DNA of 32,000 bases from Geotalea uraniireducens Rf4 (GCF_000016745.1 NC_009483.1:1740001-1772000), one strand, 5' to 3'; shown: positions 2,447 through 31,732, counted from the first letter of the stretch. The notes: generated from the letters alone by a model not told the origin. Program-made: numbers and translations.

Positions 2447-4486
2447 TTATGAGCGGGATAAGGGGAGGGCAAAGCTGAACGTGCTTCCATGGTTGAGAGT
2501 GCTGTCAACCCACATCCTGCCGCTATGGGCGTCGACTATTCGCTTGCAGATGGCAAGGCCCAGGCCGCTCCCTTTCTTGGCGGAACTGTTAGTGGATTTC
2601 AGATGGTAGAATTCGTTGAATATCCTGGTTATGTAGTTTTCCGGAATCCCCTCGCCGGTGTCCGTAACGGAAACAAGAAGTTCTTCATCACAGACGGAAA
2701 CTGAAATGCCGATTTTCCCGCCGCTGGGGGTGAATTTGATGGCATTGCCGATCAGGTTGGTCAGAACGCATTGGATTTTCTTGCTGTCAAAAAACGCGGA
2801 GATATTGTCCTGCAAAGGTTCTACGCTCATTTGCAGGCCGTGCTGCCAAGCGAATGGGGCGAGGACCGTGTATACTTCCTGGATAGACTCCATGATATTT
2901 TTATCTTCACATGATAGTTCCAGTTCGCTGGAGTCGAAATTGGAATTGTCGAGCAGTTCTTCAATGAGGTCCATCAGGCGGTCGCAGCTGTCGATGGCGG
3001 AATCCAGATGCTCGCGCTGCATCTCGGTGAGGTTGTTCGTGTCCGAATCCCGGAGCTGCGAACAGTTGCTGTGGATAACGGCAACCGGCAGGCGAAGGTC
3101 GTTGGTGGCGGTATAGATAAATTCCGACTTTAGATGGTTGACCCCCTTGAGCCGTTCATTTGCCTCTGCCAGCTGATGCTGCGCCCTTCTTTCCTCTGTA
3201 ACATCCATGAACGTGAGAATGGCATAGTTCCCTTCGAGGCGGTAGTTGCTGACAGATACCGCTACGCAGCGTTTTTCCCCGCATTTGGTTTTAAAGAGGA
3301 GATCGTACTTATTCCTGAAATTACGACCGAGGAAAAAGTTCATATGGTTTTCCATCCCCACCTGGAAGCTTTCCTCGGCCAGGAAGTCCGTCAGCGTCAT
3401 TTTCAGCATCTGGTCCCGCTGGTAGCCGAGGATGTCGAGCGCGCTCCTGTTGACGTATACCGGTTCTCCTCGTGCATTCAAAACCATGAGTCCTTCCGAT
3501 GCATGCTCGAAAAGACTTTCGTAAACGGCTTTTTCCGCTAGCTCCTTTTCCAGTTTCTCCTTTATTTCCCGCAGCTCATCGGACTCTTCCAGAACCTTTT
3601 TAAACTGGGATGCGTTTTTTATGGCATTTGCCGAGGCATCGGCGACCAGTTGACAGAAACGGAGTTCGCGGCTGCTGAATGAATTCCTGTCGTTGGTGGT
3701 CCTGACCATCAGAGAACCGATTATCTCGTTCTGAGACAATATCGGGACGACCAGGATCGTGTCCAGGTCGATATCCGAAATATATTTTTTGACATCGTCG
3801 AGCAGCGGGTGGTGCTTGGCGTCTCTGATAACAAGGGCTTTGCGGGAGCGGATCACTTCCAGGAGTTCCGGGTAGCGTGACAGTTCAATGCGAATTCCCT
3901 TGGCTGAGGGGTTGTCGCTCGATGCCAGGACAAAACCGTACCCTTCTTCGCTAAACTTTACTATGGAACAACGTTTGACCTCAATGTGGTCTGCAATTTT
4001 CTTGACGATGATCTGGAGGATTTCCCGGGTGTCGAGTGTTGATGTGATAGTTTGTGAGATATCCAGGACTGTTTCCGCGTCCTTATTCTTCAGCTCCATC
4101 ATGGCAATGGCCTCACGCTTGAAAAGGTTGGCGCGGATCCTGGCCAGGAGTTCCTTGTCGGAAAAAGGCTTGGTGATGTAATCATCGATTCCGGCGGCGA
4201 AAGCCGCAAGGAGGTTGTCCTTTTCTTTTGAGGCGGTAATCACGATCACGGGAATCGTGGCAGTGTGCATATCCTGTTTGATTCGCCTGCAGGCCTCAAC
4301 GCCGTCCATCTCCGGCATTACCAGGTCCATCAGGATAATGTCCGGCATGAATTCCTGGGCTTTCGAGACTGCTGAAGCCCCGTTGGTCGCCTCTTCGATG
4401 ACATAATGCAGCGGGGCGAGGGTGTCCCGCAGCATTTGCAATGCGAATTTCTGATCGTCGACTATGAGGATTTTATTTGCTTTCAT
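2447..4486 (-). CDS. Hybrid sensor protein REC-GAF-PAS-HisKA(degenerate)-HATPase_c
   Basis: The receiver domain is at the N-terminus (KILIVDD, IILMDLVMPEMDG, KP). A GAF-like and a PAS-like middle region follow. The ATPase boxes are intact (NLIGNAIKFT, DTGEGIP, GSGLGLAICKRIV). The H-box reads KSEFIYTATNDLRLPV where SHELRTPL is expected. The track start is a GTG at 4495; the ATG at 4486 (MKANKILIVDD) is more typical. Confidence 0.85.
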   Translation of the reverse strand: MKANKILIVDDQKFALQMLRDTLAPLHYVIEEATNGASAVSKAQEFMPDIILMDLVMPEMDGVEACRRIKQDMHTATIPVIVITASKEKDNLLAAFAAGIDDYITKPFSDKELLARIRANLFKREAIAMMELKNKDAETVLDISQTITSTLDTREILQIIVKKIADHIEVKRCSIVKFSEEGYGFVLASSDNPSAKGIRIELSRYPELLEVIRSRKALVIRDAKHHPLLDDVKKYISDIDLDTILVVPILSQNEIIGSLMVRTTNDRNSFSSRELRFCQLVADASANAIKNASQFKKVLEESDELREIKEKLEKELAEKAVYESLFEHASEGLMVLNARGEPVYVNRSALDILGYQRDQMLKMTLTDFLAEESFQVGMENHMNFFLGRNFRNKYDLLFKTKCGEKRCVAVSVSNYRLEGNYAILTFMDVTEERRAQHQLAEANERLKGVNHLKSEFIYTATNDLRLPVAVIHSNCSQLRDSDTNNLTEMQREHLDSAIDSCDRLMDLIEELLDNSNFDSSELELSCEDKNIMESIQEVYTVLAPFAWQHGLQMSVEPLQDNISAFFDSKKIQCVLTNLIGNAIKFTPSGGKIGISVSVCDEELLVSVTDTGEGIPENYITRIFNEFYHLKSTNSSAKKGSGLGLAICKRIVDAHSGRMWVDSTLNHGSTFSFALPLSRS

Positions 4487-6009: not shown

Positions 6010-6051
6010 GGGACTATCTGTGGGTAGAGAGCATGGCGGTCGGCAAATCAA

Positions 6052-6199
6052 TTAATCCCAAAAACGGCTGTTAGCCACGAATGACACGAATAAACACGAA
6101 TGTTATTAACCCCTTGTTATGTCTTGAGTAGTCAGCAGTCTGGTGAGTGTCTTCTGCATCAGAAGAGCTTATATATTTGTGCAAATTCGTGAAAATTCG
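6052..6199. repeat. Palindromic repeat element E1, part upstream of the intron
   Basis: The outer arm TTAATCCCAAAAACGGCTGTTAGCCACGAAT is the imperfect inverse of the sequence after the intron (ATTCG|TGGCTAAAATGCTTTTTATAGG). It carries three CACGAAT subrepeats at 6075-6104. The whole element recurs reverse-complemented at 18822-18950 plus 21024-21052. Confidence 0.65.
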
Positions 6200-6767
6200 G
6201 TACGCCAGGCCAAGCCTGGCTGATCTATCTGACTGAAAAGTGTCAGACATGTAAATTGCTCGTTCACCATGTAGTCGCGGTCTGTCACGAGAGGGTAACC
6301 AAACGTGGGGAGTAAGACCGGTTCTTTGTAAGAAAAGAGCGAAGGGTACGATAACTACCCTGACGACGAAGACGCGAGCCCAGCGCAAGCGAACCCGTTT
6401 CGGCCTCGTTACACGTAGTTGACAGTGGCCAACCTTCCGAATGTGGTGAAGCCTGCCACCCACCGGTGATAAACGAGCGAAAGAACCGGTGGGACTGTCC
6501 GGGGTGATTGGGGAGGGCGCGTGTCGAAAGATCAGCCGAGGAACCTGGGAGGTCCGACGTAATTCCCAAAGCGAAAGGGTTTCGCCGAAGGGAGAACGCC
6601 GACGGGGAATCAATAACCCGCCAAGCGTGTACGGTCGGAATTCGGAGCGGCCCATAGTAGCCGGGAAGCGGGGTAATGCCCGTGGAGCCAAGGGGCCGTA
6701 CTTCAGTCATGTTTACACGGAAAGAGAGGAGACCCGCTTGAGCGACAGACGCTCCATAACGGAATGG

Positions 6768-8072
6768 ATGGCCGAAGGATTCGAACCTGAACCCGGACTG
6801 CCGGTAAAAGTCTCCCTTCTGCGGTGGAAACTGAGCAGCAAGGCCAAACGAGAACCGCAGTTCCGGTTCTATGCCCTTTACGACCGAATCCATCGTCGTG
6901 ATGTACTTGAAACGGCGTGGTTGCGAGTAAAGGCGAACAAGGGCGCGCCGGGAGTCGATGGTGTCAGCATTGAATCCATCGAGGTGCGGGCAGACGGAAT
7001 ATCCGGCTATCTTGACGAAATTCAAGAAAGCCTGAGAACCAAAAACTACAAACCATCCCCGGTGCGTCGCGTCTACATCACCAAGCCCAACGGCAAACTG
7101 CGCCCGCTCGGCATACCGTGCGTGCGGGACAGAATTGTACAGGCAGCCGTACTCCTTATCCTCGAACCGATATTTGAGGTGGACTTTCTCGACTGCTCCC
7201 ATGGATTTCGTCCCAAAAGGCGTCCCCATGGAGCCCTCGACCAAGTCGGTAATAACCTCCAACTCGGACGGCAGGAAGTGTATGACGCGGATCTTTCGAG
7301 CTACTTTGACAGCATCCCCCACGAGCACCTGATAGTAGAACTTGAGCGGCGCATAGCCGACCGGAGTGTCCTCAAACTGATCCGGCAATGGCTTCACAGT
7401 CCGGTAGTAGAAGAAGACGGCAGCATCAGCCGTCCCAAACAAGGGACGCCACAAGGCGGGGTAATATCTCCCCTTCTTGCCAACATCTACCTTCACCGGC
7501 TCGACCGGGCCTTTCACGAAGAAGCAGACAGCCCCTACCACTTCGCCAGAGCGCGCATGGTACGGTTTGCCGACGACTTCGTAGTAATGGCCAGACACAT
7601 GGGCAATCGCATAACCGGATGGCTGGAAGAGAAACTCGAAACAGACCTTGGACTCAGCATCAACCGTGACAAAACCGGTATTGTCAGAATGAACAAGAAA
7701 GAGAGCCTGAACTTTCTGGGATTCACCCTCCGCTATGACCGTGACCTGCGGGGCAGAGATTGGGATTATCTCAACATCATGCCGAGTAAGAAGGCCATAG
7801 GAGCACTCAAGGGAAAAATCCGGGAGAAGACCCGAAGCGGATACAAAAAGCCGCTTGTCGAAGCAATTGCCGAGGTAAACAGCATCCTTCGCGGATGGGG
7901 CAACTACTTCGACTACGGGTATCCCCGGAAAGTATTTCGAGACGTGAATCATTACACGAGGACTCGCTTTCGAATATTTCTGAACAATCGGAGCCAAAGG
8001 CGGAGCAAACCCTTCAGGGCAGGTGAAAGCCTGTATGCCGGACTTAAGCGATATGGTCTGGTTTACCTGTAA
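6768..8072 (+). CDS. Group II intron-encoded reverse transcriptase/maturase (no endonuclease domain)
   Basis: 434 aa counted from the ATG at 6768 ([10 protein letters not shown]). The track ORF extends upstream to 6489 through ribozyme sequence. Motifs: [50 protein letters not shown] (YADD variant), and maturase X motif RGWGNYF. The protein ends shortly after X, so there is no HNH/En domain. Confidence 0.92.
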
Positions 8073-8123
8073 CAGCAAAGCCACAACTCCTCAATAATGC
8101 CGTGCAGCAAGAGGCTGATAGGT

Positions 8124-8272
8124 AAGCCGTATGCGGGAAATCCGCACGTACGGTTTGACGAGGGGGAGCTGGTTAAGGCAACTATGGTAAGGCTACTTAG
8201 GCACCGCCAAACGAAAGGGGCGGAAACGGACAAGCCAAACCTAATGATGTCGTAACCTGCTTCCTACTCTAC
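8124..8272 (+). ncRNA. Group II intron domains V and VI (ribozyme core and branch site)
   Basis: Domain V is AAGCCGTATGCGGGAAATCCGCACGTACGGTTT (8124-8156), with an AGC triad, a 2-nt bulge region and a GAAA loop. In domain VI, 8160-8169 GAGGGGGAGC pairs with 8259-8269 GCTTCCTACTC, leaving A8266 bulged 6 nt before the 3' end. An 89-nt insertion (8170-8258) extends domain VI. Confidence 0.7.
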
Positions 8273-8295
8273 TGGCTAAAATGCTTTTTATAGGT
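8273..8295. repeat. Palindromic repeat element E1, arm downstream of the intron
   Basis: TGGCTAAAATGCTTTTTATAGG is the exact reverse complement of 18822-18843. It abuts the miaA stop codon at 8296. Confidence 0.6.
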
Positions 8296-17446: not shown

Positions 17447-17580
17447 ACTAATCTTCCGCAGCAGTTACCCTCCCTTTGAGAAAGGGGGGCAAGGGGGGAT
17501 TTTCCCGGCTGCAATGAAAGGCAAATCCCCCTAAATCCCCCTTTCATAACGGGGGACTTGGTCTTTCGGAAGATTGGTAC
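17447..17580. repeat. Structured palindromic element between convergent genes (G/C-tract hairpins, flanking inverted repeat)
   Basis: The inverted repeat is AATCTTCCG (17450-17458) / CGGAAGATT (17567-17575). Internal hairpins are CCCTCCCTTTgagAAAGGGGGG (17468-17489), GGGGGGATTT...AAATCCCCC (with a duplicated AAATCCCCC) and TCCCCCtttcataacGGGGGA. The right end overlaps the pstS stop codon. Confidence 0.5.
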
Positions 17581-18611
17581 TAATCGGCAAAGCTTATGCT
17601 CCTGATCGTCTCTTCAACCATAGTTACCACATGGGATGGGAGCGGCACATAAAGCTGAAGATATGCCATCTTCTGGCCGTAACGGATGCTCCAGTTCAGA
17701 AATTCAACCAGCTTTTTCCCTTTTGCCGGGTCTCGCTGGTGCTGATGGACAAGTAGCCAGGTAAATCCCGCCATGGGATAACTGTCCCTCCCCGGTTGAT
17801 TAACCAGGGATGCCCGGTAATCGGCAGGAATGGATGCAACGGTCTGGGCGACCGCTGCGCTGATCGTTTTCAGGTCGGGAAGCACGAATCTTCCGCTTCT
17901 GTTTCTGATGGCGGCATAAGCGAGGTTTTCTTCACTGGCGTAGATGAGTTCCGAATAGCCGATTGAATAAACATGCTTTTTAACCTCTACGGTTACGCCT
18001 GCGTTACCTTCACGACCATACCCCACCGGCCAGCTGACCGTCGTCCCCCGGCCGACCAGCCTGGCCCAGCTGGAACTGACTGCACTCAGATATTCGGTGA
18101 AGATGCTCGTAGTGCCGCTCCCGTCGGAACGATGCACAACAGCGATCTCCTTGTCGGGTAGCCTGAGGTTCTTGTTGAGCACCGCGATTCGTGGATCATT
18201 CCAGCGCACTATCCTGCCGAGAAAAATGTCGGCGACAACATCCGGGGTTAGTTTCAGCCCCTTGCCGATGCCGGGAATGTTGTAGGTAATCGCAACTGCA
18301 CCAATAACCGTCGGTATGTGAAGAATCTTTTCCGGCACGGATTTAAGCTGTTCGTCGGACAGAAACTTGTCGGTTGCACTGAAATCGAGAGTGCCGGCCA
18401 GCATCTGCCTGACACCGCTTCCACTGCCGATGGGCTGGTAGTTGAATGTCACGGAAGGGTCGACCCGGGCGTACTCCTTGAACCAGGTGGCATAGAGGGG
18501 ATAGGGAAAGGTAGCGCCTGCGCCGGTAATGATTGTTTGCCCCGGGACAGCCAATGCCGGCGCTGAAAGAACAAACAAAACGATCAGCAGGATATACCAA
18601 TTATTTCGCAT
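17580..18611 (-). CDS. pstS: Phosphate ABC transporter substrate-binding protein, paralogue 1
   Basis: I moved the start to the ATG at 18611 (MRNNWYILLIVLFVLSAPALA, a signal peptide). It has GAGATFPYPLY, SGSG and HRSDGSGTT motifs, and is similar throughout to the other two pstS copies. Confidence 0.9.
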   Translation of the reverse strand: MRNNWYILLIVLFVLSAPALAVPGQTIITGAGATFPYPLYATWFKEYARVDPSVTFNYQPIGSGSGVRQMLAGTLDFSATDKFLSDEQLKSVPEKILHIPTVIGAVAITYNIPGIGKGLKLTPDVVADIFLGRIVRWNDPRIAVLNKNLRLPDKEIAVVHRSDGSGTTSIFTEYLSAVSSSWARLVGRGTTVSWPVGYGREGNAGVTVEVKKHVYSIGYSELIYASEENLAYAAIRNRSGRFVLPDLKTISAAVAQTVASIPADYRASLVNQPGRDSYPMAGFTWLLVHQHQRDPAKGKKLVEFLNWSIRYGQKMAYLQLYVPLPSHVVTMVEETIRSISFAD

Positions 18612-18681
18612 GTTTACTTTTCCTTTCGCACTGACTTTGTGTTTATATAGTAGCATATCATTTTTGATATTAATTTTACTT

Positions 18682-18821: not shown

Positions 18822-18950
18822 CCTATAAAAAGCATTTTAGCCACGAATTTTCACGAATATACAAGCTTTTGTGAAGCAGAAGACACTCACCAGATCGGTG
18901 ACTAGATTTAACAATGGGTTAAAAACATTCGTTTTTATTCGTGTCATTCG
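18822..18950. repeat. Palindromic repeat element E2 (reverse orientation relative to E1), part upstream of the intron
   Basis: CCTATAAAAAGCATTTTAGCCACGAAT... is about 85 percent identical to the reverse complement of E1, with small indels. It ends ...CGTGTCATTCG immediately before the intron. Confidence 0.65.
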
Positions 18951-21023
18951 GTACGCCAGGCCAAGCCTGGCTGATCTATCTGACTGAAAAGTGTCAGACA
19001 TGTAAATTGCTCGTTCACCATGTAGTCGCGGTCTGTCACGAGAGGGTAACCAAACGTGGGGAGTAAGACCGGTTCTTTGTAAGAAAAGAGCGAAGGGTAC
19101 GATAACTACCCTGACGACGAAGACGCGAGCCCAGCGCAAGCGAACCCGTTTCGGCCTCGTTACACGTAGTTGACAGTGGCCAACCTTCCGAATGTGGTGA
19201 AGCCTGCCACCCACCGGTGATAAACGAGCGAAAGAACCGGTGGGACTGTCCGGGGTGATTGGGGAGGGCGCGTGTCGAAAGATCAGCCGAGGAACCTGGG
19301 AGGTCCGACGTAATTCCCAAAGCGAAAGGGTTTCGCCGAAGGGAGAACGCCGACGGGGAATCAATAACCCGCCAAGCGTGTACGGTCGGAATTCGGAGCG
19401 GCCCATAGTAGCCGGGAAGCGGGGTAATGCCCGTGGAGCCAAGGGGCCGTACTTCAGTCATGTTTACACGGAAAGAGAGGAGACCCGCTTGAGCGACAGA
19501 CGCTCCATAACGGAATGGATGGCCGAAGGATTCGAACCTGAACCCGGACTGCCGGTAAAAGTCTCCCTTCTGCGGTGGAAACTGAGCAGCAAGGCCAAAC
19601 GAGAACCGCAGTTCCGGTTCTATGCCCTTTACGACCGAATCCATCGTCGTGATGTACTTGAAACGGCGTGGTTGCGAGTAAAGGTGAACAAGGGCGCGCC
19701 GGGAGTCGATGGTGTCAGCATTGAATCCATCGAGGTGCGGGCAGACGGAATATCCGGCTATCTTGACGAAATTCAAGAAAGCCTGAGAACCAAAAACTAC
19801 AAACCATCCCCGGTGCGTCGCGTCTACATCACCAAGCCCAACGGCAAACTGCGCCCGCTCGGCATACCGTGCGTGCGGGACAGAATTGTACAGGCAGCCG
19901 TACTCCTTATCCTCGAACCGATATTTGAGGTGGACTTTCTCGACTGCTCCCATGGATTTCGTCCCAAAAGGCGTCCCCATGGAGCCCTCGACCAAGTCGG
20001 TAATAACCTCCAACTCGGACGGCAGGAAGTGTATGACGCGGATCTTTCGAGCTACTTTGACAGCATCCCCCACGAGCACCTGATAGTAGAACTTGAGCGG
20101 CGCATAGCCGACCGGAGTGTCCTCAAACTGATCCGGCAATGGCTTCACAGTCCGGTAGTAGAAGAAGACGGCAGCATCAGCCGTCCCAAACAAGGGACGC
20201 CACAAGGCGGGGTAATATCTCCCCTTCTTGCCAACATCTACCTTCACCGGCTCGACCGGGCCTTTCACGAAGAAGCAGACAGCCCCTACCACTTCGCCAG
20301 AGCGCGCATGGTACGGTTTGCCGACGACTTCGTAGTAATGGCCAGACACATGGGCAATCGCATAACCGGATGGCTGGAAGAGAAACTCGAAACAGACCTT
20401 GGACTCAGCATCAACCGTGACAAAACCGGTATTGTCAGAATGAACAAGAAAGAGAGCCTGAACTTTCTGGGATTCACCCTCCGCTATGACCGTGACCTGC
20501 GGGGCAGAGATTGGGATTATCTCAACATCATGCCGAGTAAGAAGGCCATAGGAGCACTCAAGGGAAAAATCCGGGAGAAGACCCGAAGCGGATACAAAAA
20601 GCCGCTTGTCGAAGCAATTGCCGAGGTAAACAGCATCCTTCGCGGATGGGGCAACTACTTCGACTACGGGTATCCCCGGAAAGTATTTCGAGACGTGAAT
20701 CATTACACGAGGACTCGCTTTCGAATATTTCTGAACAATCGGAGCCAAAGGCGGAGCAAACCCTTCAGGGCAGGTGAAAGCCTGTATGCCGGACTTAAGC
20801 GATATGGTCTGGTTTACCTGTAACAGCAAAGCCACAACTCCTCAATAATGCCGTGCAGCAAGAGGCTGATAGGTAAGCCGTATGCGGGAAATCCGCACGT
20901 ACGGTTTGACGAGGGGGAGCTGGTTAAGGCAACTATGGTAAGGCTACTTAGGCACCGCCAAACGAAAGGGGCGGAAACGGACAAGCCAAACCTAATGATG
21001 TAGTAACCTGCTTCCTACTCTAC
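18951..21023 (+). mobile_element. Group II intron, copy 2 (2073 nt)
   Basis: It is identical to 6200-8272 except T19685 (C6934 in copy 1; Ala to Val in KANKGAP) and A21002 (C8251 in copy 1, in the domain VI insertion). Confidence 0.9.
19519..20823 (+). CDS. Group II intron-encoded reverse transcriptase/maturase, copy 2
   Basis: It is the same 434-aa protein as 6768-8072 with one substitution (KVNKGAP). Confidence 0.92.
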
Positions 21024-21052
21024 TGGCTGACTGCCGTTTTGGGGTTAATAGG
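21024..21052. repeat. Palindromic repeat element E2, arm downstream of the intron
   Basis: TGGCTGACTGCCGTTTTGGGGTTAATAGG matches the reverse complement of the E1 left arm at 18 of 21 positions over its first 21 nt. It overlaps the stop codon of pstS paralogue 2. Confidence 0.6.
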
Positions 21053-22079
21053 TAATGCTGCTGATGGTTTTTCCCACCATGTCGGCCAGTTTCTCGTGGA
21101 GCGGCGTATAGAAGAGCGTTGATGTCATTTTTTCAGCCTTTCTCAACTCCCAATTGAGAAACTCAACCAGTTTCTTCCCCTTTACCGGATCCTTCTGCTG
21201 CTGATAGACAAGAAGCCAGGTGAAACCGACGATAGGATAAGCCTCTTTCCCCGACTGATTGACGAGAGATATGCGGTAATCATCCGTAATCCGATTCACC
21301 GCATCGACCGTTGCAGCCCGCACCGAACGCATGGTCGGGTTGACGAATCGGCCGCTTTTGTTTTTCAGAGCAGCGGCAGGAAGATTGTTCACCATTGTAT
21401 AGGCATTTTCCACATAACCAATGGTAAAGGGTACGGTCTTGATCTGATTCACTATCTCGCCACTCCCTTTGCCGCCAATGCCGACCGGCCACTCAACGGT
21501 GGTTCCTTTGCCGATTTTCCGAGCCCATTCGCCACTCACGCCGGAAAGATAATCGGTAAAGATATTGGTCGTCCCACTGCCGTCAGAACGATGAACTACG
21601 ATGATGCCCTTATCGGGAAGATGCAGCTTTTTATTGACGGAAGCGAGACGCGGATCATTCCAGCGGGTGATTTTGCCCAGAAAAATATCGCTCAGGATAT
21701 CCGGTGTAAGCTTCAGCCCTGAACCTGCACCAGGCAGATTGTAGGTTATCGCCACTGCCCCCATCACCGTCGGTATCTGGAGGAGTTTGCCGGGTGCAGC
21801 TTTCAATTCCTCGTCGGTGAGAAATTTGTCTGAAGCACCGAAATCGATTGACTGAGCCATGATTTGCTTAATGCCGCCACCGCTGCCGACAGCTTCATAG
21901 CTGAAGAAAACCTCAGGGTCAACCACGGCGTAATCCCTGAACCATTTACTGTAGAGCGGATATGGAAACGTCGCACCGGCGCCTTTCAGGACAGTTTCTG
22001 CAAAAGCCTGCCCCGTCGTTGCAGCCATTACCAGCAAAACCAGTACAAAAATACGTTTACAAATCGTTTTGACCATCAA
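21045..22079 (-). CDS. pstS: Phosphate ABC transporter substrate-binding protein, paralogue 2
   Basis: 344 aa with signal peptide MMVKTICKRIFVLVLLVMAATTGQAFA and the motifs GAGATFPYPLY and HRSDGSGTT. Confidence 0.9.
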   Translation of the reverse strand: MMVKTICKRIFVLVLLVMAATTGQAFAETVLKGAGATFPYPLYSKWFRDYAVVDPEVFFSYEAVGSGGGIKQIMAQSIDFGASDKFLTDEELKAAPGKLLQIPTVMGAVAITYNLPGAGSGLKLTPDILSDIFLGKITRWNDPRLASVNKKLHLPDKGIIVVHRSDGSGTTNIFTDYLSGVSGEWARKIGKGTTVEWPVGIGGKGSGEIVNQIKTVPFTIGYVENAYTMVNNLPAAALKNKSGRFVNPTMRSVRAATVDAVNRITDDYRISLVNQSGKEAYPIVGFTWLLVYQQQKDPVKGKKLVEFLNWELRKAEKMTSTLFYTPLHEKLADMVGKTISSITY

Positions 22080-26973: not shown

Positions 26974-27101
26974 GTTTTAAGTTCGAAGTTCGAAGTTCGA
27001 AGTTCTAAGTTCGAAGTTCTAAGTTCTAAGTTCGAAGTTCGAAGTTCTAAGTTCGAAGTTTCAGGTTTAAGGTTTTTCAACGTCGAACGTCGAACGTCGA
27101 A
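26974..27101. repeat. Heptanucleotide tandem array in the pstB-phoU spacer
   Basis: There are 15 consecutive 7-mers at 26974-27078: 7x GTTCGAA, 4x GTTCTAA and 4 degenerate GTTT-type units. Three CGTCGAA units follow at 27081-27101. Confidence 0.95.
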
Positions 27102-27108
27102 CCGGTTC

Positions 27109-27921: not shown

Positions 27922-28055
27922 AACCGCAAAGGCCCCAAAGAGCCTAAACCGCAAAGTTCGCAAAGTAAAATCGAAAACTACTTTCTTTTTGTCTAAGGCA
28001 CTAAAAAATAGCTTTTTTTAAGTTTTCTTGGCGCCCTTTGCGACTTTGCGGTTCG
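27922..28055. repeat. REP/MITE-like inverted-repeat element in the pstA-pstB spacer
   Basis: GAACCGCAAAG (27922-27932) and AACCGCAAAGTTCGCAAAGT (27948-27967) are complementary to CCTTTGCGACTTTGCGGTTC (28036-28055). The stem is about 19 bp around a 68-nt A/T-rich loop. It sits inside an unusually long 242-nt intra-operon spacer. Confidence 0.7.
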
Positions 28056-28109
28056 ACAATGTTGTATTTTTCGTTTTTCTCCGTGTCTCTGTGTCTCCGT
28101 GGCAGGTTG

Positions 28110-30032: not shown

Positions 30033-31061
30033 TTACTTGATGCTCTTGACGGTTTTTTCCACCATCTTCGCCACGTTAGCAGGGAGTGGCGCATAGAGGA
30101 TCTTGTCGGCCATCTTCTGGCCATGCTTCAATTCCCAGTTGAGGAACTCGACCAGCTTCTTTCCTATTACCTTGTCCTTCTGGTCCTGGTAGACGAGGAG
30201 CCAGGTGAAGCCGACGATCGGGTAGGCATCCTTGCCCGGCTGGTTGACCAGCGAGATGCGGTAATCGGCAGGCATGGATTTGGCCGCGCCGGCAGCTGCT
30301 GCGCTGGTGGACTTGATGGAAGGCTCGACGAAATTGCCGCTCTTGTTTTTCAATGTGGCGAAAGGAAGCTTGTTTTCGAAGGCATAGGCCAGTTCCACGT
30401 AACCGATGGTGTACTGGGTGGTCTTGACCTGTCCGGCAACCCCTTCGTTACCCTTGCCGCCGAGGCCGATAGGCCACTTGACGGAAGCACCCTTGCCCAC
30501 CTTGCCTGCCCATTCCGGGCTGACGCTGGAAAGATAGTCGGTGAAGATGCTCGTGGTGCCGCTCCCGTCAGAGCGGTGAACAACGATGATCGGCTGGTTG
30601 GGAAGCTTGATCTTGGGGTTGTCGTTGGCGATCTTCGGGTCGTTCCACTTGGTGATCTTCCCCAGGTAGATATCAGCCACATCTTCGGAAGAAAGCTTCA
30701 GCCCTTTACCCACGCCGGGAACGTTGTAAGTGACGACCACGGCGCCCATAACGGTCGGGATGTGGAGCAGCTTGCCGGGGGCAGCCTTCAGTTCTGCGTC
30801 GGAGAGGAATTTATCGGAAGCGCCGAAATCGACGGTCTGGGCAGTGATCTGCTTGATGCCGCCGCCTGAGCCGATGGACTGGTAGTTGAACTTGACGGTC
30901 GGATCGACCTTGGCGTATTCGGCGAACCACTTGGAGTAGAGCGGGTAGGGGAAGGTTGCGCCTGCGCCGTTGATGAGCGTTTCTGCCGATGCCTGGCCGG
31001 AGATGGCGGTTACCGCCAGGATGGCCAGGGTCAGAATGCTTTTACGGATGATGTTGAGCAT
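30033..31061 (-). CDS. pstS: Phosphate ABC transporter substrate-binding protein (operon copy)
   Basis: 342 aa with signal peptide MLNIIRKSILTLAILAVTAISGQASA and the motifs GAGATFPYPLY and HRSDGSGTT. A strong AAGGAGG SD is present. Confidence 0.95.
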   Translation of the reverse strand: MLNIIRKSILTLAILAVTAISGQASAETLINGAGATFPYPLYSKWFAEYAKVDPTVKFNYQSIGSGGGIKQITAQTVDFGASDKFLSDAELKAAPGKLLHIPTVMGAVVVTYNVPGVGKGLKLSSEDVADIYLGKITKWNDPKIANDNPKIKLPNQPIIVVHRSDGSGTTSIFTDYLSSVSPEWAGKVGKGASVKWPIGLGGKGNEGVAGQVKTTQYTIGYVELAYAFENKLPFATLKNKSGNFVEPSIKSTSAAAAGAAKSMPADYRISLVNQPGKDAYPIVGFTWLLVYQDQKDKVIGKKLVEFLNWELKHGQKMADKILYAPLPANVAKMVEKTVKSIK

Positions 31062-31111: not shown

Positions 31112-31130
31112 ATGTTACAACCATGTTACA
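31112..31130 (-). promoter_or_regulatory. Pho-box-like perfect direct repeat in the pstS promoter
   Basis: In gene-sense orientation it reads CC-TGTAACAT-GGT-TGTAACAT, then 9 nt, then AATAAT. The period is 11 bp and the site is 51-69 nt upstream of the pstS ATG. Confidence 0.6.
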
Positions 31131-31712: not shown

Positions 31713-31732
31713 ATGTTACAGCCTCGTTAAAT
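31713..31732 (-). promoter_or_regulatory. Pho-box-like repeat upstream of psiE
   Basis: In gene-sense orientation it reads CA-TTTAACGA-GGC-TGTAACAT, then 8 nt, then TATCCT. It lies 37-56 nt upstream of the ATG. Confidence 0.45.

Follow-up and report, generated by a model that had tools for sequence, protein, structure and literature searches.

Why should two almost identical group II introns lie in opposite arms of copies of one small palindrome? The question is raised by a stretch of 32,000 nucleotides from Geotalea uraniireducens Rf4 (NC_009483.1:1740001-1772000), here called the window and numbered from its first letter, in which an initial annotation had noticed an intron at 6200-8272 and a second copy at 18951-21023, each inside a copy of an inverted-repeat element. 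Our analysis makes it very probable that, in separate retrohoming events, a class F intron belonging to the Ge.ur.I1 family entered two copies of a non-coding palindromic element of approximately 172 bp, whose arms are phased arrays of the heptamer CACGAAT. The intron itself is already known, and its repeated intron-binding site (IBS) motifs have already been noticed in the literature; the host element, the use of both of its arms and the targeting of such arrays by a whole clade of introns appear undescribed.

Both introns are 2073 nt long, lie on the + strand, start with GTACGCC and end with CTCTAC; they differ at two positions, 6934 (C/T) and 8251 (C/A). The limits first given for copy 1 hold, the Rfam model of domains V and VI (RF00029; gathering score 40) scoring the two introns 52.2 and 53.3 bits, with the AGC triad present and the matches stopping exactly at 8272 and 21023. 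In copy 1 these domains occupy 8122-8272 on the + strand, and the Rfam alignment of domain V reads GCGG-GAAAU-CCGC, a loop of five nucleotides and not the usual tetraloop, which the available text of Nagy et al. (2013; PMC3753933) treats as a peculiarity of classes IIE and IIF. The 3' end CUAC fits the consensus AY, and the 5' end GUACG is a one-base variant of the consensus GUGYG, common to 13 of 13 relatives with at least 68% protein identity; such relatives start GTACGCCAGG and the more distant ones GTGCGCCAGG (GUGCG). The Rfam D1-D4 models gave no match on domain I. The encoded reverse transcriptase/maturase, 434 aa from the ATG, is found at 6768-8072 on the + strand (other called starts are TTG at 6738, 444 aa, and GTG at 6489, 527 aa), leaving about 770 nt outside this open reading frame (ORF; 2073 minus 1305). 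A Pfam search of the protein returned RVT_1 (1.6e-31) and GIIM (2.6e-13) only, with no domain C-terminal of GIIM and so no DNA-binding/endonuclease (D/En) region; TIGR04416 scored 387 bits (cut-off 300). The 90% cluster of this protein includes the G. uraniireducens Rf4 proteins ABQ25493.1 and WP_232278983.1 and, together with the published exon motifs, would place the intron in bacterial class F ("IIF", IIB-like), where Ge.ur.I1 is one of the few introns left after revision (Toro & Martinez-Abarca 2013, PMC3552965). Ge.ur.I1-1 was studied as a self-splicing "group IIF" ribozyme in vitro, as the available text of PMC3753933 describes. Judged on sequence, ours is almost certainly Ge.ur.I1 or a near-identical copy: the two share one 90% protein cluster, IBS1 AUUCG and IBS2 CGUGU, repeats 9 and 19 nt upstream, the lack of an endonuclease and the 5-nt domain V loop.

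The host becomes visible once the introns are removed. The exon join of copy 1 reads ...AAAATTCG|TGGCTAAAATG, with the junction ATTCG|TGGCTAA, and ATTCGTGGCTAA, reverse-complemented, is identical to TTAGCCACGAAT at 6071-6082; the copy 2 intron is flanked by ...GTCATTCG|TGGCTGACTG. At both sites the sequence confirms a + strand intron between ATTCG and TGGCT, as had been claimed. The upstream part of element copy 1 (6050-6199) comprises an outer flank, the left arm, an asymmetric centre and the right arm up to the insertion point. The left arm (6071-6101, - strand), TTAGCCA-CGAAT-GA-CACGAAT-AAA-CACGAAT, is the reverse complement of the rejoined exon junction, and on the - strand it presents an unoccupied target, ATTCG.TGGCTAA. 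The right arm (6175-6199, + strand), ATTTGTG-CAA-ATTCGTG-AAA-ATTCG, holds IBS2 CGTG (6188-6191) and IBS1 ATTCG (6195-6199); the downstream part (8273-8294) is TGGCTAAAATGCTTTTTATAGG, its TG completing the split heptamer. Copy 2 lies in reverse orientation, with an upstream part at 18822-18950, in which the arm TTAGCCACGAAT-TTT-CACGAAT (18837-18858) is free and the arm ATTCGTTTTTATTCGTGTCATTCG (18927-18950) is occupied, and a downstream part at 21024-21052, TGGCTGACTGCCGTTTTGGGGTTAATAGG, that overlaps the stop codon of a pstS paralogue (21045-22079, - strand). The flanks match as inverted repeats at 6129-6191/18842-18904, 6078-6124/18904-18950, 6180-6199/18844-18863 and, in 22 of 22 positions, 8273-8294/18822-18843. 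Without the introns, an alignment of copy 1 with reverse-complemented copy 2 has 171 columns and 86.5% identity over ungapped columns, close to the 85% first estimated, the flanking arms being swapped and two indels, of 5 nt and of 10 nt (one repeat unit), separating the copies.

The arms are arrays of two or three CACGAAT units ending ...TTAGCCA, spaced by 9 then 10 bp in the left arm and by 10 then 10 bp in the right. With up to two mismatches CACGAATNNNCACGAAT occurs five times in the window, always in element arms (0.22 expected; five reached in 0 of 100 shuffles). The initial annotation had described terminal inverted repeats, perfect over 12 bp and imperfect over about 30; the perfect part stands, while strictly terminal the repeats are not, since homology between the copies passes the 12-mer by about 21 nt on one side (to approximately 6050, where homology of copy 1 with the three other copies found begins) and by 15 nt on the other (to 8294), and the imperfect repeat, which spans stretches outside the 12-mer, extends over about 45 nt per arm. 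Four copies of the element were retrieved, two in the window, one in a Joint Genome Institute (JGI) metagenome (L124) and one in the Logan run SRR9436595 (L204). They share the asymmetric centre (...TCTGGTGAGTGTCTTCTGC...), with 79-88% identity, and carry 3, 3, 2 and 1 units in the right arm; thus whole units are gained or lost. Copy 1 is found between miaA and a glycosyltransferase (GT2) gene, copy 2 has a pstS paralogue on either side, and the copy in L204 adjoins a HIT-family gene. Where a target-site duplication would be expected, copy 2 is bordered by TTAA on both sides and copy 1 by TTAA and TTCA; one side is visible in each of L124 and L204. In its small non-coding size, its terminal inverted repeats and its several copies dispersed over different contexts the element resembles a MITE (miniature inverted-repeat transposable element). 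Two small features are found inside copy 1. At its centre (6150-6166) a 7-bp hairpin, TCTTCTG-CAT-CAGAAGA, followed by a T-rich run was flagged as terminator-like on the + strand and is degraded in copy 2. A frame of about 30 codons occupies 6099-6194, opening with an ATG inside the left arm's third unit (CACGAATG) and closing with a TGA in the right arm; it bears no similarity to the GxxExxY proteins discussed below and is probably meaningless.

Because the arms are inverted, each strand of an element carries the target once, invariably where the palindrome, read along that strand, has its 3' end, and both arms are found in use. The two window elements have opposite orientations and both introns lie on the + strand, so that relative to the asymmetric centre opposite arms were used: the right one in window copy 1 and L124, the left one in window copy 2, L204 and the published Ge.ur.I1-1 exon. 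In all four retrieved copies the intron fills one arm and the other keeps an intact ATTCGTGGCTAA or ATTCGTGGCTAG, leaving ATTCG.TGGCTAA or ATTCG.TGGCTAG available on the opposite strand. Given introns far more alike (2 differences in 2073 nt) than their hosts (79-87% identity, with indels), and given the use of both arms, the insertions appear recent and independent, and not the result of co-duplication.

How is this site recognized? A protein scan of metagenome contigs yielded 80 loci with relatives (53-100% identity), and 29 junctions entered a register-tolerant test of the first exon-binding site (EBS1) against matched permutations of exons among introns (n = 2000). The candidate EBS1 put forward at the outset, CGAAT at 6438-6442 (+ strand), is borne out: in the local fold it lies in the loop of a short hairpin, its context in the domain I alignment is CCTTC-N5-RTGGTGAAGCC, and it covaries with the last five exon bases, all five pairs forming in 23 of the 29 junctions and four in the remaining 6 (permuted exons: 9.1 full pairings on average, 16 at most). 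About ten distinct EBS1 sequences occur across the clade, the covarying EBS1/IBS1 pairs including CGAAT/ATTCG, CAGAG/CTCTG, CAAAG/CTTTG, CGAAA/TTTCG, CAGGA/TCCTG and CGACT/GGTCG. The EBS2 core CACG (6412-6415, + strand, within ACACG 6411-6415) pairs with CGTG of the preceding heptamer. This contact follows a conserved CYTCGTTA, its first three bases (CAC, CGC, TAC or AAC) fit GTG, GCG, GTA or GTT, respectively, and the match lies 2-3 bases upstream of IBS1 in 31 of 34 junctions; a looser permutation test was modestly significant (45/2000) because most sites share GTG. Thus, EBS2 and EBS1 read two successive units of the repeat, and insertion splits the last unit as ATTCG|TG. The same periodicity accounts for an earlier observation: alternative 5' splice sites of Ge.ur.I1-1 lie 9 and 19 nt upstream, at AUUCG (IBS1) and CGUGU (IBS2) repeats (Nagy et al. 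2013, in the text available), and 9 and 19 nt is precisely the geometry of the left arm here, CATTCG|TGTTTATTCG|TGTCATTCG|intron.

This habit is not confined to the window. Among 33 relatives whose 5' junction could be determined and whose exon sequence reaches at least 20 nt (53-100% protein identity), the IBS1 5-mer is repeated with at most one mismatch 8-12 nt upstream in 26, against 11% of random positions in those loci. The units differ from relative to relative (ATTCGTG, CTCTGTG, CTTTGCG, TTTCGTG, CTTCGTG, ATCCTG and others), and EBS1 follows them. The 3' exons start TG or CG, which completes the split unit; the arrays end GTGG or GCGG, and several introns lie one unit inward of the end. 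With these array junctions and with EBS1 fitted to the local unit, the whole intron clade lives in phased heptamer arrays. Downstream of the intron copy in L124, a palindrome of CACGGAT/ATCCGTG type is found at 3059-3165. Three loci from different samples, L001, L124 and L125, share one 3' flank (TGCCTCCCAACCTTTAGTC...) behind three different 5' exons.

What, then, are the arrays? A one-genome-per-species collection was searched with the inner arm only (CGAAT-N2-3-CACGAAT-N3-MACRAAT). At least 120 rows matched, and the phyla listed include Verrucomicrobiota, Planctomycetota, Chloroflexota, Acidobacteriota, Bacteroidota, several proteobacterial classes, Calditrichota and others. Among the matches listed there are 148 arrays in 119 loci; CA precedes 91% of them and CCA 82%, neither being required by the pattern, and for 66% an inverted, phased partner lies within 400 nt. 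Most of the listed arrays are short palindromes without a gene. In four loci found through the arrays, on the other hand, the arms directly bracket an ORF of about 130 aa, identified as PF13366 (PDDEXK_3) and also as TIGR04256, "GxxExxY protein"; in a fifth case, L165, CACAGAG units bracket a GxxExxY gene beside a distant relative of the intron. As these five had come via arrays or intron, four further loci were picked by GxxExxY protein sequence alone, and in 4 of 4 ...AACCAC(G/T)AATGG lies at the start codon or includes it, and ATTCGTG-N3-ATTCGTGG follows the stop; one of them is a Thermococci metagenome-assembled genome (MAG). In all, GxxExxY genes (PDDEXK_3, about 125 aa) are bracketed by CCACGAAT... 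/ ...ATTCGTGG arrays, or by CACAGAG in L165, in 9 of 9 loci, all from other organisms (L073 3600-4100; L116 2850-3350; L046 5880-6300; L034 2000-3500; L165 4150-4757; L209, L219, L227 and L237, gene 501-887), and the start codon is often placed within the last unit (CACGAATGG). In three of the four loci picked by protein, L209, L227 and L237 (sister loci L210-L218 and L228-L246), the GxxExxY cassettes sit in operons resembling those of bacteriophage exclusion (BREX), with pglZ on one side and a gene for an N6 methyltransferase or SNF2 helicase on the other, and may be hitch-hikers in defence loci or accessory genes.

The window element is non-coding, with no ORF of 60 codons or more matching the GxxExxY profile inside it. 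Since the arms flank a GxxExxY gene in each of the nine loci examined, the element is probably a gene-less derivative of such a cassette. When the ORFs of 120 array loci were clustered all against all, PDDEXK_3 was the sole recurrent small family; no large gene recurred that could be a transposase adjoining the arrays, and no gene like the REP-associated tyrosine transposases (RAYT) of repetitive extragenic palindromic (REP) sequences recurred beside them. A PDDEXK_3 scan of viral contigs gave no relatives, and the family matched no solved structure and no defence-system model. A 2012 survey of PD-(D/E)XK proteins lists it, in the part available, as "unknown, multiple transfers"; our literature searches on GxxExxY, PDDEXK_3, PF13366 and TIGR04256 returned passing mentions and, in the texts available, nothing on function, and those on CACGAAT/ATTCGTG and on MITE or heptamer arrays nothing relevant. 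We tentatively propose, with somewhat more doubt than belief, that the phased CAC-heptamer arrays (CCAC NNNN, 9-10-bp period, inverted pairs) form the ends of mobile cassettes, a family as yet unrecognised and spread over many bacterial phyla and into archaea, with an autonomous form that carries only the GxxExxY nuclease of about 125 aa, with MITE-like gene-less palindromes, and with the class F intron clade as a dedicated hyperparasite. If so, the MITE-like derivatives would include the window element and the "global regulator sites" of Geobacter, and EBS1 would have diversified to follow each local unit. The "REP/MITE-like" label of the initial annotation is thereby sharpened: a small dispersed palindrome it is, one built as a phased-heptamer array that flanks GxxExxY genes across phyla elsewhere, and the REP part does not apply. 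A REP sequence or REPIN (a pair of REPs forming a hairpin) was rejected, the ends here being ...CCAC/GTGG... and the arms arrays of units, not GTAG/CGTC-headed palindromes of 20-40 bp.

Another reading would make the arrays chromosomal binding sites of a host regulator or nucleoid protein, of the type of integration host factor (IHF)/HU or Pho boxes, neither mobile nor MITE-like, with the intron simply taking advantage of a sequence that is common. Aklujkar et al. (2009; PMC2700814) do interpret the paired tandem-repeat sites of G. metallireducens, which they divide into classes 1-3, as IHF/HU sites in the text available; copy 2 lies between pstS paralogues in a Pho-type gene cluster; and the non-complementary inter-arm spacers, which indicate that the units and not the helix are conserved, suit protein sites better than a hairpin. 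We nevertheless regard this as unlikely. The Pho-box-like repeats are of ATGTTACA type, not CACGAAT (ATGTTACA-N3-ATGTTACA at 31112-31130, and a similar pair upstream of psiE at approximately 31713-31731), and copy 1, between miaA and the glycosyltransferase gene, is unrelated to phosphate genes, so Pho boxes were rejected. Moreover, a unit ending in CCA that spans Bacteroidota to a Thermococci MAG and brackets GxxExxY genes does not behave as a lineage-specific regulator site, copies vary by entire units, and the element's presence differs between close relatives. Regulator and mobile readings are in any case compatible, as a protein may bind the units.

Structural targeting in the manner of group IIC introns, with a DNA hairpin of the palindrome recognised and exon pairing of minor weight, seems to us quite improbable. 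In its favour, every copy has the intron in the arm that is 3' in the palindrome when read on the intron's strand; the rejoined elements do fold, as single-stranded DNA, into long imperfect hairpins in which the units pair and the spacers form internal loops (z = -5.0 and -3.9), and IIB introns beside attC-like hairpins are on record (Sonbol & Siam 2021, PMC7923331). The insertion site, however, is within the basal 12-bp helix, at 7 bp from the outer end, so the helix must open for EBS1; EBS1 (5 bp) and EBS2 both vary in step with the exons throughout the clade; and a strict inverted partner arm is present in only 6 of the 25 relatives with at least 150 nt of upstream sequence. The ribozyme, about 770 nt without its ORF, and the class F, not class C, protein point the same way. 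The IIC introns named initially as a known analogue therefore remain an analogy, and membership of group IIC was rejected on the site within the helix, with no T run after it, on the 5-bp EBS1, on the covarying EBS2 core and on the length outside the ORF. Passive co-duplication, that is, a single intron entry followed by copying of the intron-bearing element through transposition or segmental duplication, can be set aside as very improbable, for although all four retrieved copies hold the intron and the element looks mobile (close relatives have, at their miaA loci, no such element or another array), two of the four were found via the intron, which biases them towards being filled, introns of 99.9% identity lie in elements far less alike, and no copying could yield two occupied right arms and two occupied left arms relative to an asymmetric centre.

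How might independent insertion have proceeded? The intron ribonucleoprotein would reverse-splice into the top strand of an arm, with EBS2 on unit n-1 and EBS1 on unit n. Since the protein lacks an endonuclease, cDNA synthesis should depend on the replication fork, as in RmInt1, which prefers the lagging-strand template (PMC8914252, in the text available); reverse splicing would then take place into DNA transiently single-stranded at the fork, with nascent DNA as primer. Fork-dependent insertion would account for the + strand site alone being filled in both window elements.

Several observations weigh against independent retrohoming into a mobile host, or against parts of it. Retrohoming itself is inferred. 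No intron-free member of the 172-bp family is found among the retrieved copies; contigs from other public samples break inside the intron at both loci; and the miaA loci of relatives with 93-94% identity offer no clean empty site, one having no element and different neighbours and three an ATCAGAT-type array at the contig end. The inner units also carry ATTCG|TG and are unused in all four copies; the preference for the outer unit may have a further determinant, either the 3' exon (TGG versus TGA or TGT at +1 to +3) or a protein contact. The window holds no GxxExxY gene, both introns are antisense to all flanking genes, and a + strand promoter scan upstream of both found no convincing sigma-70-like promoter. 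The GC skew of the window + strand (+0.03) is a weak signal; were + the leading strand, the intron would, on this slight indication, lie in the lagging-strand template. Finally, the common 3' flank of L001, L124 and L125 is most likely assembly chimerism across the 2-kb intron repeat, and for this reason we relied on 5' junctions, which EBS1 ties to the intron. Introns and arrays break short-read assemblies, and most protein relatives are found on contigs of about 2 kb.

Targeting of multicopy or mobile DNA by introns without an endonuclease is itself known, from RmInt1 in an insertion sequence (IS; PMC8914252, text available in part) and, for IIC introns, from their insertion at terminators and attC sites (Toor et al. 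2006, PMC1702495; Leon & Roy 2010, PMC3001079). RmInt1, a class D intron of Sinorhizobium meliloti, likewise homes to a multicopy mobile target, ISRm2011-2, by EBS1/EBS2/EBS3 pairing and with a replication-linked strand bias (PMC1802570, PMC8914252, as far as the available texts go); its site, however, is unique and inside the transposase gene, whereas ours is a periodic unit that recurs in each arm and on both strands. IIC and IIC-attC introns, and the IIB introns near attC-like hairpins, resemble the window intron in lacking the endonuclease, in using inverted repeats in non-coding or mobile DNA, in their position on the 3' side of the palindrome and in being often antisense; yet IIC introns insert after a stem-loop, with a short IBS1 and no EBS2, whereas the window intron lies inside the basal helix and has a 5-bp EBS1, an EBS2, an IIB-like ribozyme and a class F protein. 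An attC site or integron cassette was rejected for the host element: GTTAGCC (6070-6076) breaks the RRR of the R' box GTTRRRY, each arm has three phased units against two boxes, and there is no integrase among the window ORFs.

On the side of the host, MITEs and REP/REPIN sequences with their RAYT transposases are similar as small, non-coding, dispersed palindromes with gene-bearing relatives; the protein between the arrays, however, is a PD-(D/E)XK protein of about 125 aa (GxxExxY), not a DDE or Y1 transposase, and the arms are phased unit arrays, not simple terminal inverted repeats or, as the available text of PMC3733652 describes REPs, GTAG/CGTC-headed hairpins. A further likeness is offered by the Geobacter "global regulator" sites, intergenic pairs in which runs of 3-5 tandem hepta- or octanucleotides face each other on the two strands across a variable gap, and at fixed distances from which IS elements insert (PMC2700814); in the available text of that paper, group II introns, GxxExxY genes and other phyla are not connected with these sites. 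For Ge.ur.I1, too, the repeated IBS was seen as a cause of alternative splicing in vitro, and the available text describes neither a palindromic host nor both-arm use nor a clade-wide link to arrays. In the searchable literature we did not find described a palindromic heptamer-array host, symmetric use of both arms or a reading of successive units by EBS2 and EBS1, nor a clade-wide specialisation with diversified EBS1 or an association of arrays with GxxExxY genes across phyla. Two exon-binding sites set on successive units of a periodic repeat amount to a new targeting logic for a group II intron, giving one site per strand, spare sites within each arm and a safe haven in non-essential multicopy DNA. 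The approximately ten EBS1 sequences matching local units offer a natural example of intron retargeting. GxxExxY/PDDEXK_3, a family of thousands of members, is now tied to a defined DNA motif, and its function becomes testable.

Other repeats and genes occur nearby. The Pho-type cluster holds three pstS (PBP_like_2) paralogues on the - strand (17580-18656, 21045-22079 and 30033-31061; DNA about 67-72% identical) with psiE, pstC/A/B and phoU. In its pstB-pstA spacer lie two intron-free repeats: at 27924-28051 a palindrome built on another unit, CCGCAAAG...CGCAAAG // CTTTGCG-a-CTTTGCGG, which does not fit EBS1 of the window intron, and at 28078-28102 (+ strand) a single array, TCTCCGTG TCTCTGTG TCTCCGTGG, which fits the G. 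metallireducens class 2 consensus TCTCCGTS. EBS1 sequences suited to units of these kinds occur in metagenomic relatives of the intron, CAAAG in L127 and CAGAG in L126, L132 and L141. Just after miaA, where the window has its CACGAAT element, 94%-identical relatives carry a ...GATAAA/ATCAGAT-type array (L205 3680-3749; also L206 and L207). The phoU-pstB gap (26974-27103) contains about 12 tandem GTTCGAA/GTTCTAA copies followed by three CGTCGAA, which are uninterrupted 7-bp repeats, unlike the spaced arrays.

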